A DNA stretch of 64,000 bases, taken from the IMG/VR virus record IMGVR_UViG_3300023174_000047, positions 96,001 to 160,000 of that record, one strand, 5' to 3'. The stretch is from a virus (taxonomy: Duplodnaviria > Caudoviricetes). Position 1 is the first letter of the stretch, and each line of letters opens with the position of its first letter. Shown in pieces: positions 1,771-60,359 of the stretch. The position numbers were made by a program, and so were the translations under genes. A model generated the notes under the pieces. That model did no database searches. It was not told the DNA's origin and was given only the letters and a program-made list of their open reading frames with translations.

Positions 1771-1799
1771 TTAATTTGTACAGAGATTAAATAGATATA

Positions 1800-2702
1800 A
1801 TGTCAAGCAAAAAAATAGCTGTTTGGTCTGATGTGGATTTGGATGGCGCAATGTGTCAAATAATACACACATGGATGCACGGCGAAACAAACATTGAGAA
1901 ATACACCTGCAATGCCGCAAGACTGAGAGAAGAATTACTCAAATGGCTAAACACGCACAAGTTTTCTGATTACAAGCAAGTTGTCTTTGCTGATTTAGAT
2001 ACCAGCAGCATTGCTGATCTAATTGACCTTGACAATGTAGTTATTTATGATCATCATGAATCACATAAGACGCAGGCCGCTTCGTATATCAAGGCAAGAG
2101 TACATGTGTATGATTGCAAATCTGCCGCTGAAATTATTTTTAAAGAAAACAAAAATATTTTAATCAGCCAAAAAGCAATAACACCAGAGAGAACGAAGCT
2201 TTTATTATTAGTAAGTGACTACGACAGCTATACCCTGCAATTAAAAGAATCAAAAAATTTAAGCATCATATTCTGGAGCTATACAGGCAACAGAATAGAA
2301 CAATTTTGCAAAGAATTTATTAATGGTTTTAGCGGATTTACACAATTGCAGCAAAATGCTATTGTATTCTATTATAAAAAGCTTAAAGAAATTACAGATG
2401 ACCTGCATTTATTCACAGGCACAATCAGAGATAACAAAGTTATAAGTTGCTTCTGTAGTGCAGCACATAATGATGTAGCACATTATATCATTAATACATA
2501 CAAGGCAAACATTGCCATCTTAGTTAACCCAAAAACTAAAACAGTATCATTTAGAAAAAGCAAGGATTGCAAAGTTAATTTATCTGTTCTTGCAGATACG
2601 CTATGCGGCGAAGGGGCAGGCGGACACGATGCTGCTGCTGGTGGTAAAATTACAGAAAAATTTTTATTATTTACAAAGACCTTATCTCCCCATGAATCTT
2701 GA
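1800..2702 (+). CDS. DHH/DHHA1-family phosphoesterase
   Basis: Motifs SDVDLDG, DLD, YDHHESH and the DHHA1 motif GAGGHDAAAGG. Confidence 0.88.
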   Translation: MSSKKIAVWSDVDLDGAMCQIIHTWMHGETNIEKYTCNAARLREELLKWLNTHKFSDYKQVVFADLDTSSIADLIDLDNVVIYDHHESHKTQAASYIKARVHVYDCKSAAEIIFKENKNILISQKAITPERTKLLLLVSDYDSYTLQLKESKNLSIIFWSYTGNRIEQFCKEFINGFSGFTQLQQNAIVFYYKKLKEITDDLHLFTGTIRDNKVISCFCSAAHNDVAHYIINTYKANIAILVNPKTKTVSFRKSKDCKVNLSVLADTLCGEGAGGHDAAAGGKITEKFLLFTKTLSPHES

Positions 2703-2958
2703 AAGTGAGTTTGAACAGGAGTATAGCATGCTCTCTTTTTGTAGTTTTATTACCATCATGCATGGTAAAAAATTAAATATTCCCAATATTTTTTTACTGC
2801 TACTTAAAAATAAAAAATATAGAGATTTGTTTAAAAGTATGCTTGACTTAGAGTGTGACTATCAGATATTTAAGATGTTCGTTGATTACGATCCTATGCT
2901 GTATAAAAGCAAGTATATCTCCAAATATCTCAATAAAAATGCAAATGCACTTAAGTGA
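2692..2958 (+). CDS. Hypothetical protein
   Basis: Start moved to ATG 2692 (MNLESE), which overlaps the DHH stop; fills the gap in the operon. Confidence 0.65.
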   Translation: MNLESEFEQEYSMLSFCSFITIMHGKKLNIPNIFLLLLKNKKYRDLFKSMLDLECDYQIFKMFVDYDPMLYKSKYISKYLNKNANALK

Positions 2959-3595
2959 TTTCGATAAGCATATATATAATGAATATCTAAAAGCGCAGCG
3001 TAAAGGCAAGCCATATACACTGCGCAAAAACTTTGATAATATAGACGATGAAACACAAGTATGCTTAAAGCAGCTGTCTGAGTTTTTTGCATCTTTTCCA
3101 GACATACGCATTAATGACTTTTTTAATGCAGGGTTTAAAGATACGGACTTTCAATCAATAACATTTTTTAAGAGCATGCGAGCTATAAAAATGTACCATG
3201 CATACATTGGTAATAAGCTCAACAGGGCAGATGATGACTGGGTGATTGATTTTATCAAATCATCACTGTTATATGTTCATAAATTTTGCAAACAAAATAA
3301 TTTAGCAGTTGATCAATACCTTGATGCAGAGTCACCTGCAGGTGTCCCATGGTTTGCTATTCATTTAAAAAACTTCAATGTATGCATATATTTATTACTT
3401 GCATTTTCTGACTTTGATAATAAAATAATGAAGCATAGCGATGCCATGGTAATGATTTTAGGAGATGAATTTTTTAAGGACATTACCCGCCACAGAACTA
3501 TGTTTGTCACTTCCAATAAATGCAAACAACTTGCACGTAATGGTCTTGATATTCTCAAACAACAAATAAAATACCCAACCACACAGACAAACTAA
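2939..3595 (+). CDS. Hypothetical protein, possibly a gp59-like helicase loader
   Basis: About 218 aa, directly upstream of gp32 as gene 59 is in T4; the assignment is positional only. Confidence 0.4.
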   Translation: MQMHLSDFDKHIYNEYLKAQRKGKPYTLRKNFDNIDDETQVCLKQLSEFFASFPDIRINDFFNAGFKDTDFQSITFFKSMRAIKMYHAYIGNKLNRADDDWVIDFIKSSLLYVHKFCKQNNLAVDQYLDAESPAGVPWFAIHLKNFNVCIYLLLAFSDFDNKIMKHSDAMVMILGDEFFKDITRHRTMFVTSNKCKQLARNGLDILKQQIKYPTTQTN

Positions 3596-3602
3596 AATAA
3601 CT

Positions 3603-4469
3603 ATGAAATACAATACATCCATGTTCGATAGCATTAGAGATGCTATTAATAAGCAACAAAAACAAAATACCGGCACAAGAGATATTATTTCTTTTGAAAA
3701 GGGCAATACGTACGTAATTCGTTTGCTTCCTTTTATTCAAGATCCTGATAAGACTTGGTTCAAATATTCCACCTTTGGATGGAATAGCTTTGCTACAGGA
3801 GCATACACAAGCATTATTTCACCCACTAGCTGGAATGAACGTGATCCAGTAGCAGAGGAACGCATACGCGTTTACCGTAATGGTACTGAAACAGAAAAGG
3901 AAAAGATCAAGAACATTCGCAGAAGTGATCGCTGGATCATGAATGTATATGTGGTATCAGATCCGACAAATCCTGAGAACAATGGCAAGGTCAAGATTAT
4001 TCGTTTTGGCAAGCAGCTCTACAACATTATCAACAATGCAATTAGCGGTGAAGATGCAGACGAGTTTGGTGCAAAAGTATTTGATCTTTCTTCCGCAGGT
4101 GTCAATCTCAAAGTCAAGGTTGAAGATCAAGGTGGTTATGCAAATTATACTGCAAGCCGCTTCACAAGCCCCATTGATTTGAAGCTATCCGAGAATCAGA
4201 TTGAAGAGATCTATAACTCAACTAAAGAGCTTGACAAGGTATTCAATGTCCGGTCATATGATGATATCAAGAAAATTCTCGAAGAACATTACTACTGCTC
4301 ACCTGCTACACCTGCTGCACCATTAGCAAGAGCAGCAGTTGCATCTGAACAAAGCGCACATGCAAAGCAGTTCGGTGAATCCACTGATGCAGTGGGAGTC
4401 GAGTCCATTGATGATGATGAAGATGATGATGAAAAAATGCGCAAACTGATTGAAGAACTCTCTGCATAA
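3603..4469 (+). CDS. 32: Single-stranded DNA-binding protein, T4 gp32-like
   Basis: GNTYVIRLLP, NVYVVSDPTNPENNGKVKIIRFGKQLY, and an acidic C-terminal tail. Confidence 0.9.
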   Translation: MKYNTSMFDSIRDAINKQQKQNTGTRDIISFEKGNTYVIRLLPFIQDPDKTWFKYSTFGWNSFATGAYTSIISPTSWNERDPVAEERIRVYRNGTETEKEKIKNIRRSDRWIMNVYVVSDPTNPENNGKVKIIRFGKQLYNIINNAISGEDADEFGAKVFDLSSAGVNLKVKVEDQGGYANYTASRFTSPIDLKLSENQIEEIYNSTKELDKVFNVRSYDDIKKILEEHYYCSPATPAAPLARAAVASEQSAHAKQFGESTDAVGVESIDDDEDDDEKMRKLIEELSA

Positions 4470-7591: not shown

Positions 7592-7608
7592 GCATAAATA
7601 CAATACAT

Positions 7609-7794
7609 ATGAACTATATACGCCCCATCATGATGGTATCACCAACTGGATCAATGGTAGCTCCGAGAATTGTGGAGCACCGCACTGGTGATAAAATCCA
7701 TGTTGAAGCACATTGGTATGATCCCAACAATGGTGTATTCTTTCACAGAGGCACCGTTGAGATTAAAGATGTTGATTCAGTTGATAAGAAGTAA
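7609..7794 (+). CDS. Small hypothetical protein
   Basis: 61 aa ORF filling the gap; TAAATA at 7595-7600 upstream. Confidence 0.6.
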   Translation: MNYIRPIMMVSPTGSMVAPRIVEHRTGDKIHVEAHWYDPNNGVFFHRGTVEIKDVDSVDKK

Positions 7795-7809
7795 CAGACA
7801 ATCTATATT
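7781..7809 (+). promoter_or_regulatory. Sigma70-like promoter for primase
   Basis: TTGATA(7781)-17 nt-TATATT(7804), then 5 nt to the ATG. Confidence 0.55.
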
Positions 7810-9314: not shown

Positions 9315-9348
9315 GCACATATTTATTGCTTTACATTAAATATTCACG

Positions 9349-10192: not shown

Positions 10193-10594
10193 ATGAATAC
10201 AGATCGTAGATTCATCGAATCTTTACCAGACGTCCCTGCATCTGCAATACAAGCTGTTGAATTGAATGTAGCGAATTATGAAGATGCTATACGGCTTATA
10301 GATAGCATTATAAAGGAAATTGCAAAGAGTGACGATTATGCAAAAATTATGTCAATTTATACAACTGCACAAATGTATGGCAAAAATTGCACCGTTGATA
10401 GTTTGATGCATGCCCTCACTAATGCATACAAAGCGTTTGCTAAGCAAGAAAGTGTACTTGCAATTGACTTGTTGAGCAAAAACATTTTAAATTCAAATGC
10501 ATGCATTGAATCGCATAGCAAACTCAAAAAAGAAATATTTACTACAGTTATTCTTGGTTATGCTGCATCAATTCTTGCACAACAAAACAGTTGA
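10193..10594 (+). CDS. Hypothetical protein
   Basis: 133 aa ORF within the operon. Confidence 0.65.
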   Translation: MNTDRRFIESLPDVPASAIQAVELNVANYEDAIRLIDSIIKEIAKSDDYAKIMSIYTTAQMYGKNCTVDSLMHALTNAYKAFAKQESVLAIDLLSKNILNSNACIESHSKLKKEIFTTVILGYAASILAQQNS

Positions 10595-10619
10595 TTTCAA
10601 ATAAAAATACATATACAGT
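10591..10619 (+). promoter_or_regulatory. Sigma70-like promoter
   Basis: TTGATT(10591)-17 nt-TACAGT(10614), then 5 nt to ATG 10625. Confidence 0.45.
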
Positions 10620-13907: not shown

Positions 13908-13947
13908 TCACATATTTATTATTTTTGCACCGAATTGCATTATAAGC

Positions 13948-14718: not shown

Positions 14719-14726
14719 ATGGCTAT

Positions 14727-16514
14727 TTATTCACCATAGCACTTAACTTCAAATTGCCAATTTGAACCATCAAATGGCGACTCAACTACAATCTTAATAT
14801 CAGATGGTGTTTCCCTTGCTTTAGATATGGTAAGTACACCGGTGAGTGCAGGCATAGCAGTAAGTGCAGGCATAGCAGTGATCTCTGGTGTATTAGTAGT
14901 AAGCTTTGGTGCAGCAATGGGTGAATATCCTAGTGCGGTGAGTGCAGCATTATATGTTTGATCGCCTATGAAACACGTGCCAGTTATTGAGGGACCCCAA
15001 CTTACTGTGAACCGTGCAGGTGCATTTGTATTGCTGTATGTAATGTTATACGGTCCTGTTTGTGTTCCGCCGTTGAACGTATAATTATGTACACCTTTAA
15101 CACCTGCACTACGAACTGGTGCATCACAGTACGCCTCAAAAGATGCTATGCAGCTTGGGAAATAATCATATTTTACAACTGTTGACTCAGCAATATAATC
15201 AGCATACAGATTATTGGCATCTTGATAGATGCCACCAATAATCATCCATGCCTTGTCACAATAAGCATTGATTGCAGCATCAGCACTAAATGCACCAACT
15301 GTATTATTATTAAAATCTGCTGTATCGGTTACAAAATAGATGTACTTGTTGTAGCTAGTTTTATAATCTCTTAAAATATTTGCTGCTTGAAATAGTGCAT
15401 CAATGCCATTTTCTGGCATATCACTGCCACCATCACAGTAAAACGGTCCCGCATTGCTAGATGCCTGCTGCAGAAAGTCTATTGCCTCTTGAATGGTATT
15501 ATCAAATGTAATTGTCTGTGGGCACACTTTGTCACCAAAAGAAATAATGGATACCTTTTTAACGGCACCTGTATATGCATATTCTTTAAGCACTTGTAGC
15601 CCAAGCTGTGCACTATATGTTCCTATGGAATCTGTTTGATCCAAAACCAGAACCAATACAAACGGATCCAAGCAAAGATCCTTGCATGCATATACTGCAT
15701 CTGGAACAGGTGGCTGAATAGGCACATATGGTCCAATGAGACTTGTAGTTGCAGGAGCACGCAGCCTAATTGATTCAGGTGTTTCAAATGAAAGATTTTG
15801 AACAACAGGAAATCTGTATATTGTTGGTGGCGGAGGAGCTGATATTACTGGCAAATCATCAGCTCCCTCAACATGAAAATTCTTTATACCAAATTTAGCA
15901 CCTGTAGCAATGCCACACAGAGGAGCTGCATATGATACACCTGCCTTGTAAAAAGAAGAAGTTGATGCATTGATTGAAACAGGACAGTCAAGTATCACGG
16001 TGTATGAATCATCAATGAATCGCGCGATCTCAATGGCAGATCCTGCATCATGCAGTCTAAATCTCAGTGTATTAAACACAAGCCCGGAACTTGTAAATGC
16101 AAATGCAGAGTCTAGAGATGATAGTGCAATGGATGTTAGATATGTAAAATTGGATCCTGTTCTAATGGTAATGGCAGGGCCATAATTAGATGCTATCCCT
16201 GTGGTTTTGCCATTGCCAGATAATGCAAATTGACCATGTGTATCAAACCCAATGCCCAAAACCGCACCACTTAGCCCTGAAAGAGAAGCAAAGCCGGTAT
16301 AGTCTTGACTTGGTGCATATCCCAGTGAAGAACCAATGCCTCCACCTGTGAGCATGGGTACACGTGCATCATATAAGAATGTACAAAACCCACCCTGCAC
16401 ATTGGCACCGCATAGCGCATACTGCAGAGACCATACAATGTCCTGGTAAGCATTTAGTGCTTTATTGTGCACTATACTTGCTGCAAATGCAGAGGTTGAT
16501 ATTAATGTTGGCAT
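14727..16514 (-). CDS. L-type lectin plus vWA-domain virion adhesin
   Basis: Lectin-like QGGFCTFLYD, SSLGY and LGIGFDT; Pro-rich linker; vWA-like LVLVLDQTDS and GGSDMPENGIDAL. Confidence 0.65.
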   Translation of the reverse strand: MPTLISTSAFAASIVHNKALNAYQDIVWSLQYALCGANVQGGFCTFLYDARVPMLTGGGIGSSLGYAPSQDYTGFASLSGLSGAVLGIGFDTHGQFALSGNGKTTGIASNYGPAITIRTGSNFTYLTSIALSSLDSAFAFTSSGLVFNTLRFRLHDAGSAIEIARFIDDSYTVILDCPVSINASTSSFYKAGVSYAAPLCGIATGAKFGIKNFHVEGADDLPVISAPPPPTIYRFPVVQNLSFETPESIRLRAPATTSLIGPYVPIQPPVPDAVYACKDLCLDPFVLVLVLDQTDSIGTYSAQLGLQVLKEYAYTGAVKKVSIISFGDKVCPQTITFDNTIQEAIDFLQQASSNAGPFYCDGGSDMPENGIDALFQAANILRDYKTSYNKYIYFVTDTADFNNNTVGAFSADAAINAYCDKAWMIIGGIYQDANNLYADYIAESTVVKYDYFPSCIASFEAYCDAPVRSAGVKGVHNYTFNGGTQTGPYNITYSNTNAPARFTVSWGPSITGTCFIGDQTYNAALTALGYSPIAAPKLTTNTPEITAMPALTAMPALTGVLTISKARETPSDIKIVVESPFDGSNWQFEVKCYGE

Positions 16515-19139: not shown

Positions 19140-19147
19140 GCTTATAT

Positions 19148-20236
19148 TTAGCTAAGAGCCTGCAATTCGCTAGGTATATCAAACACAGGAATTGCTTTTT
19201 TACCAAATGGTGTCCCCATGTCGACTACGATGAAGCCAGCAGAAGATAATGTATATGTTGCTGATCCTGTGCCAGTTGATGCAACATACTGTGTTGTGCC
19301 TCGTTTTGTGCCTGTTGGAAATTGATTGTAAAAGCCTCCAAAAGCATTGCCATAAGAACTCAATGGCAGGCGCGCAGCATTATAGAGAGAAGACAAAGCA
19401 ATGGTATTGCTCTTAATTTGAATAGAAGCATTATCAACTTTTGCACTCAGTCCTTGAGCTGTAGCAGCAAGCCCACCAGATGCATAAACAAGCAATGAGC
19501 TTGACGTGTTTACTGCGATTTGATTTGATGCATTTATAACAACAGTTGCATTATCAACTTTTGCACTTAAACCTTGAGCTGTAGCAGCAATCCCACCAGA
19601 TGCATAAACAAGTAATGGGGTTAAAGGATTTACAGCAATTTGATTGAATGCATTTAAAATGATGGTTGCATTATCAACATTAGCGCTGAGTGTCTTTGCA
19701 GCGGTTACACCTAAACCGTTGCCTGCAAGTGTGGAAACATTAATGTTGGTGTTATTAATGGTACCAACTCTAATTTTATTTGTTGCATTATTGATGGTAA
19801 TTGTAGAATTATCCACATTAGCACTCAAGCCTTGTGATGTCGCAGCAAGTCCACCAGATGCATAAACAAGCAATGAGCTTGCTGTATTGATGGTGAGTTT
19901 ATTAGATGCATTAAAAATGATGGTCGTATTATCAGCCTGTGGTCCAATGTATTTCCATGCAGATGTCTGTGTTGCTTTTGTACCTGTGAGTTGGTATAGT
20001 AAACTATTTTCCAACACGATATCACCTTGAACTGCAGCAAGAGCAGTCTTGTTAGCTACAATTGGTGTAAAGGCTTTAGATCCCACCGCAATTCCACCTA
20101 CTGTAGCACCATCACCCACAAAGACACGTTTTGAATCAATGGTATATCCTAATTCTCCCTGATCAAGAGTGATCAGTAGTCTTTGAGATTCAAGACCGCG
20201 GCGCAATTTGAGTTTAATAATTTTAATGTCAGGCAT
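19148..20236 (-). CDS. Tail fibre with an Mtd-N-like head and a repetitive shaft
   Basis: KLRRG...LDQGELGYTIDSKRVFVGDG; repeats of LLVYASGGLAAT.QGLSA.VDN. Confidence 0.75.
   Translation of the reverse strand: MPDIKIIKLKLRRGLESQRLLITLDQGELGYTIDSKRVFVGDGATVGGIAVGSKAFTPIVANKTALAAVQGDIVLENSLLYQLTGTKATQTSAWKYIGPQADNTTIIFNASNKLTINTASSLLVYASGGLAATSQGLSANVDNSTITINNATNKIRVGTINNTNINVSTLAGNGLGVTAAKTLSANVDNATIILNAFNQIAVNPLTPLLVYASGGIAATAQGLSAKVDNATVVINASNQIAVNTSSSLLVYASGGLAATAQGLSAKVDNASIQIKSNTIALSSLYNAARLPLSSYGNAFGGFYNQFPTGTKRGTTQYVASTGTGSATYTLSSAGFIVVDMGTPFGKKAIPVFDIPSELQALS
19430..19890 (-). repeat. Coding repeat, about 120 nt (40 aa) unit, three clear copies
   Basis: The core ccaccagatgcataaacaag recurs at about 19473, 19593 and 19852. 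Confidence 0.85.
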
Positions 20237-21862: not shown

Positions 21863-21884
21863 TGTTGTTATTTATATGGTGTTG

Positions 21885-23768: not shown

Positions 23769-23776
23769 ATCTTTAT

Positions 23777-36667: not shown

Positions 36668-36688
36668 TATTTAATAAGCGTATAAATA
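36668..36688. promoter_or_regulatory. Back-to-back divergent late promoters
   Basis: TATTTA at 36668-36673 (minus strand) and TATAAATA at 36681-36688 (plus strand). Confidence 0.75.
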
Positions 36689-38199: not shown

Positions 38200-38207
38200 A
38201 TAAACTG

Positions 38208-40201: not shown

Positions 40202-41404
40202 TGTCTCATTCTAGATGAGCTTGCATTCATTGATCCACCTTCCATCATGGATGATTTTTGGCGATCAGTGTGGCCAACCATTTCTCGATCCAAACACTCC
40301 AAAGTCCTCATTGCCTCTACACCCAAAGGCACAGATAACCTGTTTTATCAGCTGTATGACGGGGCCATCAAAGGTGAGAATGGCTTTGCAAGCATGACCA
40401 TCAAATGGGATGCAGTTCCTGGTCATGATGAAAAGTGGAAACGTGAACAAATCAAACAAATCGGTAGCGTGGAATCATTTATGCAAGAATATGATTGCCA
40501 GTTTCTTCAAAGTGGTGAATCGTCCATTGACTTGAGCACATTTGATAAACTCAGGCAATATTGTACAACACCTCAGTTTTTTCTTGAAAGCGACAAATAT
40601 ATGATATGGAAATCACCACTACCAGATCGTCTGTATGCAGTTGGTGTTGATGTTGCTGAAGGAGTAGGTCAGAATTATTCTGTTATTCAAATTCTTGATA
40701 TCACCGATTTGACCAGCATTGAGCAAGTTGCTGTTTACAGAGATAATACCATTGCACCAGCACAATTTACAACAAAATTGCATGAAATAATGCAGCAATG
40801 GGGAAACCCCTTGGTTCTCATTGAAAGAAACAACTGCGGTGCTCAGGTTGTTGATAATCTGCGGAATATACATCAGTATGAAAATATTGTAAGCTATGGG
40901 GCTGAACTAGCTGGCCGCAAAAAAGATTTTTTAGGTGTTGTTGCTCACACCAACACCAAACAGCGCGGTGTTCGCAACATGAGATACTGGGTCAATACAC
41001 TCAACTGTGTGCGTTTCAATCATTTACAGACTATTCTTGAGCTCAAAGACTTTGTATGCAAGCCCAACGGAACATGGAGTGCGCGTGGCAGTGGAGTGGA
41101 CGATTGTGTCATGAGCCTCATTTGGGCACTGGTGTTGCTTGATAATGACCCACAGTATGGCATATGCGGCAATTATTTTGAAGTTGTTGATTTGGATGAA
41201 AATGGCAAACCTAGATCCATCAAGCCTTTGGATTACGGCTTAAAGTACTTCACATCAAACAATAAAAAATATGATTTGTTTGGCAATGCATTGGAAGCCA
41301 CTAAATACTCAGATGCAGCAAGCTTGCCCATTGTGTTTGGCAGTTCTACCAATCAAAGCAGCGAAGTAAGTGACCTTGAATTAGAGGGCTGGACAATATT
41401 ATGA
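39860..41404 (+). CDS. 17: Terminase large subunit, C-terminal fragment (split-intein C-half, Walker B and nuclease domain)
   Basis: After HQ|C: LILDELAFI, IASTPKG..N.FY, FMQEYDCQF, GVDVAEG, IERNN.G and DDCVMS. Confidence 0.93.
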   Translation: MADLNNHISVFNSEYEILTHEGFKDFKGVIRGDNHNKIELELSNGRNLICTPKHKIYKHDMQIAFAEDLHAGDELYNGIEIKKKTQFTDSNSVYEIIHIQDNHSYLVNDVLCHQCLILDELAFIDPPSIMDDFWRSVWPTISRSKHSKVLIASTPKGTDNLFYQLYDGAIKGENGFASMTIKWDAVPGHDEKWKREQIKQIGSVESFMQEYDCQFLQSGESSIDLSTFDKLRQYCTTPQFFLESDKYMIWKSPLPDRLYAVGVDVAEGVGQNYSVIQILDITDLTSIEQVAVYRDNTIAPAQFTTKLHEIMQQWGNPLVLIERNNCGAQVVDNLRNIHQYENIVSYGAELAGRKKDFLGVVAHTNTKQRGVRNMRYWVNTLNCVRFNHLQTILELKDFVCKPNGTWSARGSGVDDCVMSLIWALVLLDNDPQYGICGNYFEVVDLDENGKPRSIKPLDYGLKYFTSNNKKYDLFGNALEATKYSDAASLPIVFGSSTNQSSEVSDLELEGWTIL

Positions 41405-41979: not shown

Positions 41980-42009
41980 ATTTATGCTTGATTTTTCATA
42001 AATATCTAC

Positions 42010-44732: not shown

Positions 44733-44776
44733 GTTAAATCTTTATGTTTATATAGTATTATGCAATAAATAGCAAT

Positions 44777-46534
44777 ATGTCTTTGATAGAAGAAATACAG
44801 AGCAATTTATACACAAAAACAAACAAAATTAATACTGCCATAATAAGGCAAGATTGGTTTAAAAAATCTAATTTGTATGCAGATATAATGAAAGAGACAT
44901 CCTTTCTTGACAATGACGTATGCTTTGCAGCGCGAATATTTTGCATAGTCAATAATATCAAGAGCATGCCAGCGTGCCCTGTAACCGGTAAAAGTGTTAA
45001 GTGGTTACCTACAAAACATAGATTTGCCATTGCTGCTGGCAGATCAAATGCATCTAAAATTAAAAAAATTGATAATGCAAAACTATCTCAAAGCCTCAAA
45101 GCATCAAAAGCATTAATCAAAAGTAACTTCTACAGCCTATACAAAACAAATAAATTTAATATTGTCAGTAGAGAAAAATGCACAGACTTTATAAAGAGCA
45201 GATTGGAACACACCGATCACGGAAGAAAGCATAATTTTGTAGATACATCTATACTTAAAAAATATCATGATGAGTGTTGCAGCATTATTCTACATACACA
45301 GCATCCATTATTAGATGATAATGATATAAACTGGAGTGAAAGGTTTTTTCTTTTGTATAATAATGATGTCCCGAAACTATGTAATTATGATCCCACACAA
45401 AAGGCAAAATTTTGCAATTTCTTAGCTGGGTACAATAACAATAGTTCTGCACAGGCAAGGAATAAAAACACATTAAAAATAATCAAGCAATCCATTGAGT
45501 ATCAAAACTTCTCTATTTTAAATGATATAAACTCACATCAACAAGAGTATCAATTGAGATGCAATGTCTGTAATAGTATTTTACAGCGAAGATTGACAAA
45601 TGCGCGCTGGAAAGATATATTTTGTGCCAAATGCAACAATGTTACCGTGGGATCGTCTCGTGCAGAAGCAGAGATATCTGCTTTTCTGCAAAATGACTGC
45701 AACATGCAGGTTGAGAGATTATATGACTTGCCACCTAGTGGAATAGAAATCGATATATTTCTACCACAGAAAAACGTTGGTATCGAGCATCACGGCTTAT
45801 TGTGGCATAGTTTTGGTTCTTGCTTCCCCGACAATGCAGATGTTGAAAGTGTAAACAAATTTAAGCATAGAAATAAGCGGGATATATGCATGAGCAACAA
45901 TGTACAGTTGTTGCAGATTTTTGAAAATGAATGGATTGATAAAAGAAACATTGTTGAGTCAATGATGCGTAGCAAGTTAGGAATATTGCAAAATAAAATC
46001 TATGCTCGCAATTGCACAATACAATGCATCACAGCAAAACAGAAAAGTATTTTTCTTAATAATAATCACATACAAGGCAATGACAATTCACAAATTGCAA
46101 TTGCTCTAATTCATGAAGGTGACATTGTTGCAGCAATGACTTTTGGTAACCGCAAAATAACTGCAAATAAAACTTTTGAACTCATAAGATTTTGCTGCAA
46201 AACAAACACAAGCGTTATTGGAGGTGCCTCTAAATTATTAAAATACTTTACAAAAAAACATAATGTATCATGCATTACAACATATGCTGATTTGAGATTT
46301 TGCTTTGATGGTTCGTTTTACAAAAACTTAGGCTTTAAGCACATCAGAACAACACCACCTGCATACTGGTACACAGATACAAAGACTGTGATGCACCGCT
46401 CCAACTTTCAAAAACATAAATTAGTAAAACAGGGTGATGATTTGAGTCTTACAGAATGGGAAATTATGAAAGAGCGTGGGTGGCGTAGAATATGGGATTG
46501 TGGTCACATGGTTTTTGAATATAAATATTCATAA
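44777..46534 (+). CDS. Second Vsr-like (Hef-like) endonuclease with a C-terminal Mom-like GNAT domain
   Basis: SRAEAEI...EIDIFLP...GIEHHGLLWHS...LLQIFENEW; IYARNC...ELIRFC...GGASKLL...TYAD...YKNLGF...PPAYWY. Confidence 0.8.
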   Translation: MSLIEEIQSNLYTKTNKINTAIIRQDWFKKSNLYADIMKETSFLDNDVCFAARIFCIVNNIKSMPACPVTGKSVKWLPTKHRFAIAAGRSNASKIKKIDNAKLSQSLKASKALIKSNFYSLYKTNKFNIVSREKCTDFIKSRLEHTDHGRKHNFVDTSILKKYHDECCSIILHTQHPLLDDNDINWSERFFLLYNNDVPKLCNYDPTQKAKFCNFLAGYNNNSSAQARNKNTLKIIKQSIEYQNFSILNDINSHQQEYQLRCNVCNSILQRRLTNARWKDIFCAKCNNVTVGSSRAEAEISAFLQNDCNMQVERLYDLPPSGIEIDIFLPQKNVGIEHHGLLWHSFGSCFPDNADVESVNKFKHRNKRDICMSNNVQLLQIFENEWIDKRNIVESMMRSKLGILQNKIYARNCTIQCITAKQKSIFLNNNHIQGNDNSQIAIALIHEGDIVAAMTFGNRKITANKTFELIRFCCKTNTSVIGGASKLLKYFTKKHNVSCITTYADLRFCFDGSFYKNLGFKHIRTTPPAYWYTDTKTVMHRSNFQKHKLVKQGDDLSLTEWEIMKERGWRRIWDCGHMVFEYKYS

Positions 46535-46971
46535 TGCAAAAAGAATATAGACAAGGCATATACAAACCCATCAACAATCAAAAATACATTGGTGATAAAT
46601 TACCTTTTTATCGTTCTGGATACGAGCTCAAATTTATGCGCTGGGCTGATGCAAATCCCAATGTAATCAAATGGGGAAGCGAGAGCATCATTATTCCATA
46701 CAAAAGCCCCATTGACGGAAAAATGCACCGATATTTTGTCGATAATGTTGTCATTATTAAAGAAGGTGAGCAAATTAAAAAATACCTCATTGAGATCAAG
46801 CCATACAAACAGACTCTACCTCCCTCGGAACACGGCAATAAAAAACAATCCACAATATTATATGAGCATGCAACATATGCCATTAACATGCAAAAATGGA
46901 AATGTGCTAAAGAATGGTGCAAGCAACACAATTGGGAATTTTTAATATTAACAGAAAAAGAGCTGCCATAA
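46534..46971 (+). CDS. 4: Head completion nuclease, T4 gp4-like (TnsA-like fold)
   Basis: YRSGYE, WGSE.IIIPY.SPIDGKMHRYFVD, IEIKP and ILTEKEL. Confidence 0.92.
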   Translation: MQKEYRQGIYKPINNQKYIGDKLPFYRSGYELKFMRWADANPNVIKWGSESIIIPYKSPIDGKMHRYFVDNVVIIKEGEQIKKYLIEIKPYKQTLPPSEHGNKKQSTILYEHATYAINMQKWKCAKEWCKQHNWEFLILTEKELP

Positions 46972-46979
46972 ATAATATT

Positions 46980-47888: not shown

Positions 47889-47909
47889 TAAGCAACAATA
47901 AATACTAAC

Positions 47910-48461
47910 ATGGCACAGACTAACCAAACCATTGGAAACTTTTATGAACGCGCAGTATCACGTGAGTTCTCACGTGATTTCTTGTTCCGAGTCCTCAGCA
48001 TTAATTTTGCAGGTGGAGCAGTCTTCAACGAAGACGAGCTCATTTATGCAAAGACAGCAAAGCTCCCTGCTCGAAATATCACTAATACGCAAGCTAAATT
48101 CATGGGTCTCAACTTCAACATTGCAGGTACTGCTACATATCCAGGAAGCGAATCTTATATAATTACCTTTTACTGTGATGCTACTTCTTCACTTAGAAAC
48201 AAATTTTTGCAAGAATCACGTAGAGTGTTTGATGATGCAACCAGTACAGGTGATTACAACATTGCAGGCCGCGCCAGCGCAATCACATTGCTGCAGTTAG
48301 ATAAAGCACTCAACCCTGTCTCAACATTCCGTTTAGTTGGTGCAAGCGTAAGAAATGTTGGTGAAATTGGATATAGCATGGCAGATGGAACTGGCCAGCC
48401 TGTTACATTTGATGCAACGATTGCATATCACTTCTTTGAAGAGAATGCACCTGTGCAATAA
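47910..48461 (+). CDS. 19: Tail tube protein, T4 gp19-like
   Basis: FLFRV, KTAKLPARNI, FMG..FNIAG, ITFYCD and FDATIAYHFF. Confidence 0.8.
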   Translation: MAQTNQTIGNFYERAVSREFSRDFLFRVLSINFAGGAVFNEDELIYAKTAKLPARNITNTQAKFMGLNFNIAGTATYPGSESYIITFYCDATSSLRNKFLQESRRVFDDATSTGDYNIAGRASAITLLQLDKALNPVSTFRLVGASVRNVGEIGYSMADGTGQPVTFDATIAYHFFEENAPVQ

Positions 48462-48469
48462 ATAATTAG

Positions 48470-49177: not shown

Positions 49178-50049
49178 TGTTATCTACTTTTTATTCTGCA
49201 TTGCATTTGCCTGCATGCAAACAAATTGTTCATCTAAAACAGATGAACAGCAATGCATTTTTGCAATTGCAGAAATACATCATTGAAGATAGTGATGAAC
49301 TTATAAACGAATTTTTGATGAATCTCATCAAAGAATGCATGAGAGAGCAGGAGATTTTTGATTCTCTCAACTGCATCGATAAGCTTGCATGCTTAATGAA
49401 AATACGCAGCATAAGCTGCGGCGATACAGTTGTTTTCAGCAACCAACAGAACGTGCAAGGACAAATAAGCATGAATCATATCTTAAATTGCATGCATGAT
49501 ATCAATTTCAATGTAAGTGCATTGCATAACAACAACCAAGTGCAGGTAATGATATCCTTGCCGCATACACTTTTGCTGCCAAACATTTCATCAGTAATTC
49601 AAAGCTGTTTGAATGCAATTATTTTTAATGATTCAAAAATTGAAATGCAAAAAATGCCCAACGAACATGTCGTAGAAATACTCAACAATTTAGATTCACA
49701 CACAGCCAGTTATATTTATAAATTTATTAATAATTATGCTGATGATCTCACTTTAACTGTATTTACTGGTAATGCAACGTTGCAATTGGAAAGCATCATA
49801 TTATCCCCATTCAATAATTCTATGCTAGATTTTTGTAAATTTATTTTAAAAGATGATTTGCTAAATCTCTACAAAAACATACACACACTCTGTAGCAAAT
49901 CACATCTAACACCTGAATTTTTAATGAATATTCCACCCATTGAACAGCAACTCTACACTAAATTATTAATAGATGAGATTGAGCAGACTAATAAGCAGTT
50001 GACAGAGGAGCACGGAGGAATAAATATGCCAGCATATGGACAAGTATAA
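49177..50049 (+). CDS. Baseplate hub assembly protein, gp26-like with a gp51-like C-terminus
   Basis: LHLPACKQIV and DKLACLMKIRSISCGD; C-terminal LTPEFLMNIPPIEQQLY..LL. Confidence 0.6.
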   Translation: MLSTFYSALHLPACKQIVHLKQMNSNAFLQLQKYIIEDSDELINEFLMNLIKECMREQEIFDSLNCIDKLACLMKIRSISCGDTVVFSNQQNVQGQISMNHILNCMHDINFNVSALHNNNQVQVMISLPHTLLLPNISSVIQSCLNAIIFNDSKIEMQKMPNEHVVEILNNLDSHTASYIYKFINNYADDLTLTVFTGNATLQLESIILSPFNNSMLDFCKFILKDDLLNLYKNIHTLCSKSHLTPEFLMNIPPIEQQLYTKLLIDEIEQTNKQLTEEHGGINMPAYGQV

Positions 50050-50752: not shown

Positions 50753-50772
50753 GTGTCTCATAAATAATCTGG

Positions 50773-52755
50773 ATGACCCCAGAGGAGATCCAGAATATCC
50801 TTGATACACTTAAAAAATCAATTGAGAGCTTTGCTGCTCAAATTGGTACCATTGCTACTGGCGTCGAAAAACCGAAAACAGTACAATCTGTTATCACAAC
50901 GCAAGATCAAGGTGATAGTAAAGAGCAAACTGCACGTCTAAACGATAGTATCGGGCTAGGTGATGTAAAATTCATTGATGCTCTATACAAAAAGTTTCAG
51001 CCCCTGCTTGAGAGTCTTGTTCCCAAAACCGCAGCACCTGCAAATCAATCAGAAGACTCAGCTAGTGATACTGCTAGCGGTGCAGGGTTTATTGATTATT
51101 TTAATAAACAGTTTCAACCGATACTTGAGAGGTTTTTTCCTAAGACAGCTTCACCTGTTAATGAAAAAGAAGACTTAGCAGATGTTTTAGCTGGTGATGA
51201 GACAGAAAAAGTTACAAAAGTTTCTGTTGTGGGTATTAGTAGTGATGTACTCAAAATGCTCAATGGTGTTACAGCTCCACCAACCCCCGAAAAGGGTGGT
51301 GGCTTTTTAAGTGGTATCATGGGGTTATTAGGCGGTGTTGGTGCAACTGCTGCTGGCGGCGGCATACTTGCAATGATTACTGGTCTACCTGCTGCAATAC
51401 CAGGCATCTTAACAGCGCTAGGTGCCATTGTTCTTGGTGCTGCTGCATTAAGTTTGGCTATTGGCATTGTTGTTAAAACAATAAGCTTATTAAAGGATGA
51501 TTTTATAGAAATATTTCCTATCATTGATAAATTCGCCGAATTATTTATTAAGGTTGCTAAAGAAATTATTCCTGTAGTGTATAAAGCATTGGCTGATTTT
51601 GTTGCTACAATATTACCACCGCTACTTGATGGTCTCACAAAGTTTGCTTCTGTTGTAATTCCTGCAATCATTGGTGCAATAGCTGAACTTATTGGCTCAC
51701 CTGGCTTTAAATTTATTACCGGTGCACTTGTTCCGGTGCTTTCTCAAATCATTGATGTTATTAGCAATTTGCTGTCTGAATTAATAGGCGGTATAAAATC
51801 CATTTTTACAGATACAAAAGACTTTTTGGTGAGTCTATTTGAAAATATTAAACAAATTGTTGTGCCGATTATAAATGGCATCAGGGATATCATCGTTGCC
51901 ATTGCAGAGCCTGTCAAGGAAGTGTTTATCTCTAGTTTTGAGAATATTAAAAAAGTGGTTCTTGCTGTCTTGCCCGTTGTTTCATCTGCCATTGACAGGA
52001 TTTTTGATACCTTTGATAATTTTGTTGGCAAGGCTAAAGAAATACTTGAAGGTTTGCCCACCATCTTAGATAAGATTCTAAACAGCATTAAAGATTTTGC
52101 AAACAATGTTATAATTGGCAGGATTGGCGCAGTTGCAGTAGAGTTAACAGCACTTGGTGCTGCACTTATAGGCTTAACTGGAGGTAGCTTAGTCGCAAGC
52201 ATTACAAATTTCTTTACCGGGGGAGGCCCATTTGAAAAAATCATTGAGTTTCAAAACAATTTAAATGAAAGCAAACTCAAATTACTCGAGAATTTAGCAC
52301 CATCACTGCAAAAACTTACAGACATTGATATAAGCCAACTCAAAGGCTTGTCTACAATCTTAAATGAATTGATGGATCAAAGCTTGCAAGTTGCATCAAC
52401 AGTAGAAAAGATTTTTGCCGGAAAAGGATTATTTAACAAGTCAGGTGGAATTCTTGAGTTAGTTGACAAACTCGAAAAATCAAAACAAGGCGCCGAAAAC
52501 ACCATCTCTAATGTTATTATCAAGACATCTGAAGCACAAAAGCAGATTGCTGAGCTACACCTCAAAGAAGCGATGATAACCAACAAAATTCTGTCCGAAA
52601 TTTACAAAAAGATGGATGCTTTTGCAGATATGCCGCAAAAAAGCAATGTTACTGCAAAGAAGCTTGCTGGCCTCGATATCGATGCAACCATGGCGCTGCA
52701 ATTTACATCCAACAACACCAGACAACAAATAGTGCAGTCTGGTAATAGCATATGA
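50773..52755 (+). CDS. Tape-measure / gp29-like hub protein
   Basis: Gly/Ala-rich hydrophobic segments and amphipathic helical repeats; position between the hub genes. Confidence 0.7.
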   Translation: MTPEEIQNILDTLKKSIESFAAQIGTIATGVEKPKTVQSVITTQDQGDSKEQTARLNDSIGLGDVKFIDALYKKFQPLLESLVPKTAAPANQSEDSASDTASGAGFIDYFNKQFQPILERFFPKTASPVNEKEDLADVLAGDETEKVTKVSVVGISSDVLKMLNGVTAPPTPEKGGGFLSGIMGLLGGVGATAAGGGILAMITGLPAAIPGILTALGAIVLGAAALSLAIGIVVKTISLLKDDFIEIFPIIDKFAELFIKVAKEIIPVVYKALADFVATILPPLLDGLTKFASVVIPAIIGAIAELIGSPGFKFITGALVPVLSQIIDVISNLLSELIGGIKSIFTDTKDFLVSLFENIKQIVVPIINGIRDIIVAIAEPVKEVFISSFENIKKVVLAVLPVVSSAIDRIFDTFDNFVGKAKEILEGLPTILDKILNSIKDFANNVIIGRIGAVAVELTALGAALIGLTGGSLVASITNFFTGGGPFEKIIEFQNNLNESKLKLLENLAPSLQKLTDIDISQLKGLSTILNELMDQSLQVASTVEKIFAGKGLFNKSGGILELVDKLEKSKQGAENTISNVIIKTSEAQKQIAELHLKEAMITNKILSEIYKKMDAFADMPQKSNVTAKKLAGLDIDATMALQFTSNNTRQQIVQSGNSI

Positions 52756-52789
52756 GCCGCGAGTTACATATGATGTTATAAATATATGC

Positions 52790-53890
52790 ATGGCTTTATT
52801 TAAAATCGAACCCGCAACAATGCCTGTTACTAAACTGCAATATTATGCAGCAGTACCAGACTCAGTAAATGCAGGCACGAAATCTGTTGCCTCACCTGTC
52901 AATGGACAGCCCGTCATTGCAAGAAAAGTGCCTAGAGCTTTATCTAAAATAGGAAGCATTGATGTATATAATACTTTTGACTGGACTGCTTCACCTATTA
53001 ACAATGCTGGCTTTGCTAATATAACAAAGCCTCCATTTGCTAAATTAACAGAATATAGACTGGATGATAGAGCCGTAATTAATTCAATCTTGTATTATGT
53101 TCAAGCAGCTGGTGATCAAATTGGAGCAATTGCTGGTGTAGTTGCGCCTAGTGTAGCGGGCACAATTAAAAATTTAGCAGATACAGTGCGTGACGGTGTT
53201 CTAGGAGCAACTGGTGTAGATGTTAACAAGGAAAAAATAGAAGAAGCATCGGCAAGCCCATGGATTACACCATATGAAGGGCTATACTTGATGAAACCAA
53301 CACAATTTACTTACTTCTTGCCATACTTCGAGAATGATGCATTTGCACCTGCAAGAAGCTCATATAGTGAAATGTCATATCCTGGTGTATCAATAATACG
53401 CGGAGCCAGGGATACAACTACAGAGATGAGCAGAATAGTTTCACCTGGGCAGTACATTGAATCACCCAAACTCTTTACATTGAGTGACGGAAACTCTCCA
53501 TCCTTAGAAATAAATTTTCCTTTACTTAACACCATTTCGTTTGAGAGTGCAGTTAGGAATTATCAATTTCTGTGGTTGTTAATGTTTCAGAACACACCGC
53601 AGCGTGTAACAAAGTCCGTTGTAGAGATGCCTCGCATGTATGATGTACAAATTCCCGGTGTAGCATTTTTAAAATATGCATACATTGAAAGCATGGTGGT
53701 AAACTTCATAGGTGTTCGTCGCCGTGTAATCATTCCCATGCCAGCATGCCCTAACAATCCTCCAGAGGTTGAAGTTATTATGCCTGATGCCTATAGTGTC
53801 AAATTGACTGTAAAATCTTTAGTCATGAATGCAAATAATATGATGTTAGAAAATTGGAGACTGTCGGACACAAAATTCAAAAGCCCATGA
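52790..53890 (+). CDS. Baseplate tube cap, gp48-like
   Basis: INFPLLNT, FQNTPQR, YDVQIPG and AYIESM.VNF; position. Confidence 0.55.
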   Translation: MALFKIEPATMPVTKLQYYAAVPDSVNAGTKSVASPVNGQPVIARKVPRALSKIGSIDVYNTFDWTASPINNAGFANITKPPFAKLTEYRLDDRAVINSILYYVQAAGDQIGAIAGVVAPSVAGTIKNLADTVRDGVLGATGVDVNKEKIEEASASPWITPYEGLYLMKPTQFTYFLPYFENDAFAPARSSYSEMSYPGVSIIRGARDTTTEMSRIVSPGQYIESPKLFTLSDGNSPSLEINFPLLNTISFESAVRNYQFLWLLMFQNTPQRVTKSVVEMPRMYDVQIPGVAFLKYAYIESMVVNFIGVRRRVIIPMPACPNNPPEVEVIMPDAYSVKLTVKSLVMNANNMMLENWRLSDTKFKSP

Positions 53891-57752: not shown

Positions 57753-57780
57753 TTGAAAACTCAAATGCATATATTATATT
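57753..57780 (+). promoter_or_regulatory. Sigma70-like promoter for dUTPase
   Basis: TTGAAA(57753)-16 nt-TATATT(57775), then 6 nt to the ATG. Confidence 0.45.
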
Positions 57781-57786
57781 GTATAG

Positions 57787-58236: not shown

Positions 58237-58240
58237 TATT

Positions 58241-58359: not shown

Positions 58360-59289
58360 ATGAATTTACAAGGACTGTGGATCGAGAAATATCGCCCCAA
58401 ACGAATGAATGATTTATGCTTGAGTGATGAGCTCAAGGATCTCATCATCAATTATACCAACAAGCAGGAAATTCCTAATTTGCTGCTTGTTGGTAAGCCT
58501 GGCATTGGTAAAACAAGTCTTGCACGCATCATTGTGCAAGACTTGTTGGACTGCCAGTATCTATACATCAATGCTTCTGATGAAAATGGCATTGATACTG
58601 TGCGCGGCAAAATCATGAATTTTGCTCAGACCAAAAGCATTGATGGCAAGATCAAAGTGATTCTACTGGATGAAGTAGATGGTTTTACCGAGCAGGGCCA
58701 GAATGCATTGCGCAACACCATGGAGGAGTATGCAAAGTATACTCGATTTATTCTGACTGCAAATTATTTGCATCGCATCAAACCTGCATTGCAAAGTCGT
58801 TGTCAGAGCATTCACGTTGAAACAACCATTGCTGATGTAATTGCTCGCTGTGCACATATTCTCCGGCATGAGAACATCAAAATTGGCGAAGATGCCAAGT
58901 CACTCAAGCACATCATCAAGTCTCAATATCCTGACATTCGCAAAATTATTGGAAGCCTGCAACGCATGTGTGCCTCTGGTGAGTTGATTGTTGCTCAAGA
59001 CAATGCATCAAGCATTGGTATAGATTTAGTCAATAAAATCATTGCACAAACTGACTGTACAACCATCAGACAGTTCATCATTGATAATGAAGAAAAGTTT
59101 GCAAGTGACTATAGCAACCTACTGAAACTAATGCTCAATGAAATTTATGAACATCGACTTTTGCAAGAAAACAAAAAGCAGATGTTAATTTGCATCATTG
59201 CAGATCACATGTATAGATCAGTTAGTGCCATGGATGCAGAAATTAATGCATTTCATTGCTGCTTAAACATGATGAATGCTCTTACTTGA
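58360..59289 (+). CDS. 44: Clamp loader large subunit, T4 gp44/RFC-like AAA+
   Basis: EKYRP, GKPGIGKT, NASDENGID, LLDEVD and SRC. Confidence 0.93.
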   Translation: MNLQGLWIEKYRPKRMNDLCLSDELKDLIINYTNKQEIPNLLLVGKPGIGKTSLARIIVQDLLDCQYLYINASDENGIDTVRGKIMNFAQTKSIDGKIKVILLDEVDGFTEQGQNALRNTMEEYAKYTRFILTANYLHRIKPALQSRCQSIHVETTIADVIARCAHILRHENIKIGEDAKSLKHIIKSQYPDIRKIIGSLQRMCASGELIVAQDNASSIGIDLVNKIIAQTDCTTIRQFIIDNEEKFASDYSNLLKLMLNEIYEHRLLQENKKQMLICIIADHMYRSVSAMDAEINAFHCCLNMMNALT

Positions 59290-59845
59290 GGTACTTAACA
59301 TACCCTTTAGCAGAAGATGCTGGTATTTTCTCATTCTTATTTTTGAGTGAGTCATCAGAATCTTTTATTTTGCCACCCTGATCTGTCATGCGTGTCTGCT
59401 TGTATGTGTCAGTATTAGCATCCATTTCAACTGGCTCTGGTTTAATGGTAATCATGTTGTCTCTCTTTAATGCAGCTGGAAGCGGTGCATAATTTACACC
59501 ATAATCTAAGCGAGTAACAACTCCAGTTGGAACAGTAATGACATTGTAGTAACGACCACCACCATAATCCAATGCGATATCAAGAACTACGCTGCCGTTT
59601 GTATTAAATTCATTGCCGGGTGCTCTGGACGGGCTTTCATTCTTTACAGCAACAACACGAAGATTCATATTTTTGCCCATGTCAGCAACATCGTCAATGG
59701 CTTGTTGCATGGTTGGAGGCATTTCCTTGTAACATTTGGTAGATTTATAATTATCAGCAAATTTAACATAATCACCCATCAAATAGCCTGCAATTTGATA
59801 GCGTCTTTGATGGTTTTCTAATAGACTTAGATATCTGCTTTTCAT
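59282..59845 (-). CDS. Hypothetical late protein
   Basis: Start at 59845 (MKSRYLSLLE), 6 nt from TAAATA. Confidence 0.65.
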   Translation of the reverse strand: MKSRYLSLLENHQRRYQIAGYLMGDYVKFADNYKSTKCYKEMPPTMQQAIDDVADMGKNMNLRVVAVKNESPSRAPGNEFNTNGSVVLDIALDYGGGRYYNVITVPTGVVTRLDYGVNYAPLPAALKRDNMITIKPEPVEMDANTDTYKQTRMTDQGGKIKDSDDSLKNKNEKIPASSAKGYVKYLK

Positions 59846-59851
59846 TAACAT

Positions 59852-59876
59852 TATTTATGGTACTGGCTGTTAAATA
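59852..59876. promoter_or_regulatory. Back-to-back divergent late promoters
   Basis: TATTTA at 59852-59857 and TAAATA at 59871-59876. Confidence 0.7.
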
Positions 59877-59882
59877 ATAGCA

Positions 59883-60359
59883 ATGGCCAATGTTAATATT
59901 ACATTTCCTAAAGTGGAAAAAGTGAATGATAATTTCACCTTTTCTGATTTGCATCTCGATTTGCAAATAAAACAGCTTGTCACCAATGAAGCTGCAAAAA
60001 AAGTGCAGCAACAGGATATTGTTGCTGATTATGATTTAGGTGCAATTCGCAACAGCATCGTCAACATCTTTCTTACTTCGCCAGGCGACAAACTGCTCAA
60101 TCCGGTATTTGGCATTGATTTGAGAGATTACTTGTTTGAAGGTGTTACTGACACAATTGCATTTAGCATTTATAATGATATATACAATAACATTACTAGA
60201 TTTGAGCCTAGAATCACACTCAATAACCTTCAGGTGATTCCTGATTATAATAACCATCAGTATACGATAAATATGTCCATAGGCGTCCCTTTTCTGCGTG
60301 TAGATGAGTATATTCTTAACTTATACCTCAACAGCCAAGGATACGTTGTTTTTGCATAA
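59883..60359 (+). CDS. 25: Baseplate wedge, gp25-like
   Basis: AIRNSIVNIFLT.PGD.L.NP.FG and FEPRI. Confidence 0.92.
   Translation: MANVNITFPKVEKVNDNFTFSDLHLDLQIKQLVTNEAAKKVQQQDIVADYDLGAIRNSIVNIFLTSPGDKLLNPVFGIDLRDYLFEGVTDTIAFSIYNDIYNNITRFEPRITLNNLQVIPDYNNHQYTINMSIGVPFLRVDEYILNLYLNSQGYVVFA

Follow-up and report, generated by a model that had tools for sequence, protein, structure and literature searches.

The window analysed here covers bases 96,001-160,000 (64 kb) of a single virus record of 203,774 bp, IMGVR_UViG_3300023174_000047 (37.4% GC; rated 96% complete), and the element in question is the hexamer TAAATA, which stands a few nucleotides (nt) upstream of many start codons and which we read as a probable phage late promoter. 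The sequencing runs that contain this phage are lake and freshwater metagenomes. Judged by its proteins, the phage is a distant member of the T4 superfamily. It encodes a T4-like set of tail sheath, tail tube and baseplate proteins together with a terminase split by a homing endonuclease; the T4 homologues found include structural and packaging proteins (gp4, gp5, gp13, gp15, gp17, gp18, gp19, gp20, gp21, gp23 and gp25) and proteins of replication and other functions (gp41, gp43, gp44, gp46, gp47, gp55, gp61 and UvsW). A nucleotide search of cultured phages gave no match at the DNA level, and the closest cultured relatives by capsid protein are cyanomyoviruses, with ~33% identity; for capsid and sheath protein together, T4-like cyanophages and the pelagiphage HTVC008M come nearest, at 33-38%. 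An origin from a poxvirus or another eukaryotic virus was ruled out, the proteins being T4-like. Rough gene calling yielded 250 genes arranged in long co-oriented runs, with ~93% of the genome coding.

The initial annotation had listed 27 starts in the window with TAAATA 5-9 nt upstream, and the gap given was borne out in all 27. The frequency of the hexamer in the window is at chance level (84 copies versus 83 expected); its position is what stands out. The arrangement TAAATA-N5-ATG occurs there 16 times against 2.39 ± 1.50 expected from 100 dinucleotide shuffles (maximum 6), and TAAATA-N6-ATG nine times against 2.29 ± 1.57, a count reached by 0/100 shuffles. The histogram of motif-to-start distances that had been proposed as a check therefore has an excess at gaps of 5-6 nt far above the shuffled background. 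Genome-wide, the gaps between TAAATA and ATG peak at 5 nt (42 cases), 6 (23), 7 (16) and 8 (11) over a background of ~6, and among 14 base permutations of the hexamer none has a comparable peak except the overlapping ATAAAT. The same signal emerges from a motif-blind scan in which the starts of the longest open reading frames (ORFs) were used and all hexamers were counted by position: TAAATA at gaps 5 (29), 6 (17) and 7 (11) is among the strongest hexamer-by-position signals, and only the overlapping ATAAAT at gap 6 (24) ranks between them.

Defining a motif gene as one with TAAATA 3-10 nt upstream of its start in the rough gene calls, we find 84 such genes among ~250 in the genome, about a third of all starts. 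The gap is 5 nt in 36 of them, 6 nt in 17-20 (depending on the start chosen) and 7 nt in 17. In full, the box usually reads ATAAATA or TTAAATA, and the base preceding the hexamer, which corresponds to T4 position -12, is A in 62%. The window holds 27-28 motif genes out of ~59, including one case (50036, plus strand, gap 9) that was absent from the initial list. The phrase 'nearly one promoter per gene' was therefore too strong, the proportion being about half of the genes in the window and about two thirds in the late blocks.

At the left of the window, plus-strand boxes lie at 1788-1793 (gap 6, ATG 1800, a DHH phosphoesterase-like protein of 300 amino acids (aa)) and 7595-7600 (gap 8, ATG 7609, 61 aa). 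Two boxes then stand back to back, 9320-9325 on the minus strand and 9337-9342 on the plus strand, within the 34 nt between the divergent starts 9314 (minus) and 9349 (plus). Minus-strand boxes follow at 13913-13918 (gap 5, ATG 13907), 14724-14729 (gap 5, ATG 14718), 19145-19150 (gap 5, ATG 19139, an 873-aa fibre-like protein), 21869-21874 (gap 6, ATG 21862), 23774-23779 (gap 5, GTG 23768), 27781-27786 (gap 5, ATG 27775, 1332 aa), 28792-28797 (gap 5, ATG 28786, with a weak gp12-like match), 32434-32439 (gap 6, ATG 32427, 991 aa; the orthologues in the relatives L005 and L006 also have gap 6) and 32942-32947 (gap 5, ATG 32936). At starts 14718, 19139 and 23768 the TAA of the box is the stop codon of the upstream gene.

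Another divergent pair (36668-36673, minus, gap 5, ATG 36662; 36683-36688, plus, gap 8, ATG 36697) opens the terminase region on its plus side. The gene of the terminase large subunit (36697-41404) is broken into two ORFs by a homing-endonuclease gene at 38208-39872, and all three ORFs have a box of their own: beside the one at ATG 36697 for the N-terminal half, there is a box at 38197-38202 (plus, gap 5, GTG 38208) for the endonuclease, its TAA being the stop codon of the N-terminal half, and one at 39845-39850 (plus, gap 9, ATG 39860) for the C-terminal half. Further plus-strand boxes precede the tail sheath gene (41999-42004, gap 5, ATG 42010) and, downstream of it, a second, paralogous homing-endonuclease gene, 44777-46534 (box 44766-44771, gap 5, ATG 44777). 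Outside the window, a family of paralogues at the genome ends (genome 195-203 kb and 0-1 kb) has a conserved upstream cassette; here TAAATA forms part of an inverted repeat, GTATATT-N6-AATATAC, in its 3' arm, and the gap to ATG is 5 or 7.

The same strand continues with boxes for a gp4-like head completion protein (46522-46527, gap 6, ATG 46534), a gp5-like lysozyme (46969-46974, gap 5, ATG 46980), the tail tube (47899-47904, gap 5, ATG 47910), a gene with GTG start (48459-48464, gap 5, GTG 48470; start codon and gap are the same in three relatives), the additional case mentioned above (50021-50026, gap 9, ATG 50036), a tape-measure-like protein of 660 aa (50761-50766, gap 6, ATG 50773) and the gene at ATG 52790 (52779-52784, gap 5); the TAA is the upstream stop codon at 46980 and 48470. 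Around ATG 52790 the boxes form a near-palindromic pair (52779-52802). The minus-strand copy likewise stands 5 nt before an ATG, the start of a 78-aa ORF (52555-52791) on the strand opposite the 3' end of the tape-measure-like gene; chance may account for it. A last back-to-back divergent pair (59852-59857, minus; 59871-59876, plus) lies within the 37 nt between starts 59845 (minus) and 59883 (plus, gp25-like).

On the evidence of the sequence, the TAAATA box is best read as a T4-type (gp55-dependent) late promoter and not as a ribosome-binding site. The initial annotation had proposed such a promoter, and the proposal is supported by a gp55 homologue, by the class of genes concerned, by the sharpness of the motif and by a geometry like that of T4. 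The gp55-like sigma factor, which it had suggested looking for elsewhere in the genome, is encoded outside the window at genome 81064-81546 (phrog_234 match at 81109-81528, E = 8.3e-25) and aligns to T4 gp55 with 34% identity over 109 aa. L54, Y97, T99, H95 and F86 are among the T4 gp55 pocket residues that hold bases -12, -9 and -8 in the cryo-electron microscopy structure (PMC7892883); the homologue keeps L54, Y97 and T99, while H95 is replaced by F and F86 by Y. As to gene class, the box is found at 12 of the 15 late-gene homologues of T4 (gp4, 5, 12, 13, 15, 17 twice, 18, 19, 20, 21 and 25) and at none of the eight early or middle homologues (gp41, 43, 44, 46, 47, 55, 61 and UvsW), which gives ~3e-4 in Fisher's exact test (calculated by hand). 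Some motif genes are non-structural, for example the DHH phosphoesterase gene at 1800 and the two homing endonucleases.

No Shine-Dalgarno sequence had been noticed at the listed starts, and the genome agrees: GGAGG, AGGAG, GAGG and AGGA occur at 0/84 motif genes and GGAG at 3/84. The non-motif genes (166/250) are equally without Shine-Dalgarno sequences, so the absence is genome-wide. About 70 genes begin ≤15 nt from an upstream stop codon, and these probably rely on translational coupling.

The alternative named in the initial annotation, that the motif is an AU-rich translation enhancer and not a promoter, would make TAAATA the ribosome-binding site of a Bacteroidota-like host, with the promoters elsewhere. 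It would suit the genome-wide absence of Shine-Dalgarno sequences and a spacing like that of a ribosome-binding site, and A-rich non-Shine-Dalgarno motifs are known in Bacteroidota (PMC6028130). Still, this explanation fails on sharpness, gene class, relatives and antisense depletion, and we consider it very improbable. All six motif positions are invariant, which a degenerate A-rich consensus would not be: exact TAAATA occurs 62 times at gaps 4-8, each one-mismatch variant at most three times, and TAAAAA only twice although it is 1.75 times commoner than TAAATA in the genome. Exact copies without near-variants are typical of protein-DNA recognition. A translation signal would also leave unexplained why 166 of 250 genes do without the motif, why it is restricted to late homologues and why a matching gp55 homologue is encoded. 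Inside genes, TAAATA is depleted on the sense strand (87 versus 121.6 ± 8.9 expected) and most strongly on the antisense strand (61 versus 105.1 ± 8.9), which points to a signal at the DNA level.

The spacing suggests where transcription starts. In the T4 open complex, flipped adenines lie at -12, -9 and -8 (Shi et al. 2021, PMC7892883), which places TATAAATA at -13 to -6, five bases before +1; the sequence of T4 P23 agrees, with TATAAATA followed by CTCCT and then G. With this geometry and a 5-nt gap, +1 would coincide with the first base (A or G) of the start codon. The gap-5 class has a pyrimidine at -1 in 30/36 genes and a purine at -2 in 31/36, and the start codon then opens with A or G; at non-motif starts the -1 pyrimidine is found in 55%. 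A pyrimidine at -1 followed by a purine at +1 is the preferred dinucleotide of bacterial start sites. For gap-6 genes, a fixed start at the sixth base after the box was considered and rejected, this base being a purine in 8/8 window cases by eye and in only 11/20 genome-wide. In three divergent pairs the start codons are separated by only 27, 34 and 37 nt and each strand has a box of its own, which leaves no room for leaders. Most late mRNAs thus probably begin on the start codon itself, where we infer their start sites to lie.

It could be asked whether such a spacing needs a function at all, as promoters squeezed into minimal spacers might come to abut start codons simply through genome compaction. 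The coding density given above and the many boxes that overlap stop codons would fit. Compaction, however, predicts broad gaps of 0-20 nt and not a mode of 5 kept in 11 of 12 orthologues with changed spacers (see below), nor does it predict the pyrimidine at -1; moreover, other parts of this genome have intergenic regions of 45-700 nt. We regard a mere by-product of compaction as highly unlikely.

A second class of candidate promoters shares the layout. Among non-motif genes, 29 have TTGA at a distance of exactly 33 (16 genes), 34 (8) or 35 nt (5) before the start, and ATG follows the pattern TTGAnn-N16-18-TAnnnT at gaps of 5, 6 and 7 in 16, 14 and 20 cases versus ~5 in simulations. The DNA polymerase gene, for example, has TTGATA-N17-TATAAT-N6-ATG. 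In the window, sigma70-like promoters of this kind are predicted on the plus strand at 7781-7809 (TTGATA-N17-TATATT, 5 nt before ATG 7815 of the primase), 10591-10619 (5 nt before ATG 10625), 57753-57782 (4-6 nt before ATG 57787 of the dUTPase) and 408-435 (TTGAAT-N16-TATGTT, 12 nt before ATG 448 of the gp41-like helicase), the gap in the last case predicting a short leader. These sites look like promoters for the primary sigma factor of the host, with +1 again predicted on the start codon. The late class lacks a conserved -35 element, the TTGAnn-N16-18-TAnnnT pattern being also present in only 1/84 motif genes. The idea of a second phage sigma factor for the early class was rejected, as searches of the genome for domains of sigma regions 2 and 4 found none besides gp55.

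The fixed position of the -35 element relative to ATG is something that a ribosome-binding role of TAAATA fails to explain. Promoters of Bacteroidota are of the TTTG / TAnnTTTG type; the apparently classical -35/-10 elements of the early class argue against a Bacteroidota host despite the missing Shine-Dalgarno sequences, and hence also against a translation signal of such a host. A whole-genome scan with the Bacteroidota-type pattern (TTTG ... TAnnTTTG) gave no clear excess, and one with the strict sigma70 consensus gave no clear picture by itself; the early class is apparent only once positions are measured from start codons. Since early promoters have the same geometry, in a genome without Shine-Dalgarno sequences, the leaderless layout appears to be genome-wide and not a feature of the late programme; it more probably reflects how the host starts translation than a late switch. 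The leaderless structural programme of the initial annotation thus holds as to its late promoter and probably as to the missing leaders, and it does not hold as to its restriction to late or structural genes. It had also been suggested that leaderless late mRNAs could favour phage translation, which is unlikely, as the early class and the genome as a whole share the layout and the major capsid gene has a leader.

Relatives keep the box and, to varying degrees, its distance. In the closest relative compared (L005), the gap is identical in 11/12 orthologues of the window motif genes while the spacer letters differ. Relatives with 52-79% protein identity still have the box of the tail sheath gene at gap 5, again with different spacer letters; in relatives of ~42-46% identity it stands at gap 6 or 9-10. 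In three loci (L018, L020 and L032) it lies 28 nt upstream; the same box working at 28 nt, as in T4, speaks for a promoter, and a translation signal accounts neither for this distance nor for the 26-28 nt found in leadered T4 and cyanophage relatives. The most distant sheath relatives have GGAG ribosome-binding sites in place of the box. Tail-tube orthologues at ~43% identity (L010, L013, L016 and L020) have a spacer of 10-11 nt with a conserved ATTACAAGTT, for which a 4-5-nt leader is predicted, so that these genes would not be strictly leaderless; the conserved ATTACAAGTT hints that this subclade has a short leader with a function.

The explanation we favour, with a probability of roughly 0.7, is that a gp55-type late promoter has been fused to the start codon for leaderless expression, the phage as a whole having adapted to a host which makes no use of Shine-Dalgarno pairing and tolerates leaderless mRNAs. 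The motif, its spacing, the association with a gene class, the gp55 homologue and the conservation in relatives are direct observations. The RNA polymerase core of the host, carrying the gp55-like sigma factor, would read TAAATA as a -10-like element; with the box drawn up to the start codon, most often at a gap of 5, transcription would begin from the first base of the ATG or GTG, and at gaps of 6-9 it would begin 1-3 nt upstream. The late mRNAs would be leaderless or nearly so, and it would be this form that is translated, the ribosome with initiator tRNA binding the 5'-terminal start codon directly. Genes without a box of their own would depend on coupling to an upstream stop codon a few bases away or, as in the capsid gene, on an A-rich leader.

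Several observations weigh against this explanation. No box stands before the major capsid gene (genome 34,572), which has a 73-nt A-rich leader (genome 34499-34571) instead; with the most abundant virion protein made from a leadered mRNA, the host evidently translates such mRNAs without Shine-Dalgarno pairing. This leader, the clearest exception to the leaderless rule, contains a small hairpin, AGGTA-N6-TACCT. Gaps of 7-10 nt, and the 9-11-nt spacers of relatives at ~43% identity, predict leaders of 2-5 nt and thus genes that are not strictly leaderless. Some AT-rich control hexamers are, like TAAATA, mildly depleted inside genes. The gp33 co-activator was not detected (phrog_254, E ≤ 10), although gp33 is small and fast-evolving and this does not show its absence, and a gp45 clamp was not detected in the whole genome with phrog_223, PF09116 and PF02916; the full T4 late machinery is therefore not in evidence. 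A diverged gp45-type clamp is nonetheless likely to be encoded, as a gp44-type clamp loader is present (window 58360-59289; phrog_168, E = 1.8e-73). Among the runs searched with a 10-kb late block and the tail-tube region, no RNA run contained the phage; contigs from four 2025 runs of unknown kind were short, DNA-like and from related strains, and gave no transcript starts or ends.

A further objection comes from transcripts that may read through from upstream. In 22 of the 84 motif genes the TAA of the box is the stop codon of the preceding gene, and 37 more boxes lie in short tandem intergenic spacers; given this overlap and the co-oriented runs, much of the mRNA may be upstream read-through with the box internal, where it could help translation or reinitiation. 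TAAATA might then be a late promoter whose spacing is kept for UAAAUA as a non-Shine-Dalgarno initiation or termination-reinitiation signal, leaderless transcripts existing and yielding little protein. The 5-9-nt window is that of ribosome-binding sites, the capsid gene is a working example of leadered translation without Shine-Dalgarno pairing, and GeneMarkS-2 found a TAAAAA-like non-Shine-Dalgarno motif ~7 nt from starts in Flavobacterium (PMC6028130). Such a double role, though, does not explain the same spacing in the sigma70-type promoters (-35 at 33-35 nt), the 20 boxes that face a divergent neighbour and have no same-strand gene upstream, or the lack of both near-variants such as TAAAAA and boxes before early homologues. 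We hold it to be unlikely, and retain the promoter fused to the start codon as the preferred explanation.

Regarding the host, no ribosomal protein S21, WhiB or psbA was found among host-marker genes in the genome, and the look-alikes of the dUTPase in ESM Atlas are viral only. Scanning 185,579 species genomes with the sheath profile returned only contigs of metagenome-assembled genomes, at 36-38% identity and from unrelated taxa (Izimaplasma, Clostridia and Bifidobacterium), which gives no pointer to the host. As a speculative possibility, which we rate as rather improbable, an uncultured aquatic T4-like clade might have dropped 5' leaders, for host-sigma and gp55 promoters alike, because its host reads -35/-10 promoters and initiates mainly on 5'-terminal start codons, never by Shine-Dalgarno pairing; or the phage might bias ribosomes to leaderless mRNAs and so shut off host synthesis. 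We know of no abundant freshwater bacterium for which this combination of promoters and initiation has been described.

If the preferred explanation is true, this would be the first case in the T4 family of a genome-wide leaderless programme, with a gp55 box at a third of the genes and host-type promoters as well. It would give a rule, applicable to sequence alone, for choosing start codons and sorting genes by timing in these phages, which are abundant in lakes; standard gene callers, if they look for Shine-Dalgarno sites, will place the starts wrongly. It would also provide a fingerprint of the host (no Shine-Dalgarno pairing, classical -35/-10 promoters and leaderless-competent ribosomes) that can be matched to candidate host genomes, and the relatives, with gaps of 5, 9-10 or 28 nt or with Shine-Dalgarno sites, would form a natural series for the loss or gain of leaders upon a change of host.

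With respect to known systems, the finding is two known things joined, T4-type late promoters and leaderless genes whose -10 element abuts the start. To our knowledge, all descriptions of T4 late promoters include leaders and ribosome-binding sites, and we found no description in the literature of leaderless late mRNAs in T4-like phages. In T4, gp55 recognises the late box TATAAATA at -13 to -6 together with gp33 and the sliding clamp gp45 (PMC2988020, PMC7892883). The present phage has the same core box without a -35 element, a gp55 homologue, boxes at virion and packaging genes and many promoters within late blocks. It differs in that the T4 box lies 14-28 nt from late starts that have Shine-Dalgarno sequences, whereas here the distance is 5-7 nt and there are none; the first two bases of the octamer are only weakly conserved (A at T4 position -12 in 62%); and promoters are denser, at 84 of ~250 genes compared with ~12/43 genes in the late region of T4 that was checked.

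Late promoters of the form NATAAATA are known in T4-like cyanophages and in the pelagiphage HTVC008M (Clokie et al. 2010, PMC2984593), and the relaxed box N-ATAAATA is the same here. In the freshwater cyanophage BUCT-ZZ01, in contrast, the box lies ~26-27 nt from starts that have purine-rich ribosome-binding sites. Many genes in the 40.7-kb stretch read of HTVC008M, a SAR11 phage (L037), are likewise Shine-Dalgarno-like, unlike those here; at 1642, 11596, 27441 and 27712, however, this phage has ATAAATA-N5-ATG (three cases) or N8 (one), without a Shine-Dalgarno sequence. The start-abutting layout thus exists in HTVC008M as a minority form.

In Aeh1 and in 'fractured genes', hairpins that contain the late promoter control the genes of homing endonucleases (Dassa et al. 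2009, PMC2677866). Both homing endonucleases of the window (38208 and 44777) similarly have a late box in front, and one of them splits the terminase. In the published cases the hairpin hides a ribosome-binding site on read-through RNA, whereas here there is no such site and the box abuts the start. A more superficial likeness is offered by poxviruses, whose late promoters have a TAAATG initiator overlapping the start codon and whose late transcripts gain a slipped poly(A) leader; a late TAAAT element is likewise fused to the start codon, and with an unrelated polymerase and host domain this is a resemblance only.

On the leaderless side, genes of Actinobacteria and Deinococcus-Thermus have a TAnnnT box 6-8 nt before the start, the -10 box of such well-known genes being also given as ~10 nt upstream (Zheng et al. 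2011, PMC3160421; Lomsadze et al. 2018, PMC6028130). Like them, the phage has its -10 element a constant few nt ahead of ATG or GTG and lacks a Shine-Dalgarno sequence, and its early class fits directly; its late class differs in using a phage sigma factor and an invariant phage box. Leadered genes in those bacteria use Shine-Dalgarno pairing, which no gene does here. The TAAAAA motif of Flavobacterium (PMC6028130) is similar in letters and in distance and also goes with an absence of Shine-Dalgarno sequences. While the Bacteroidota motif is degenerate and stands before all genes, TAAATA is invariant, precedes one class of genes and is paired with a sigma factor.

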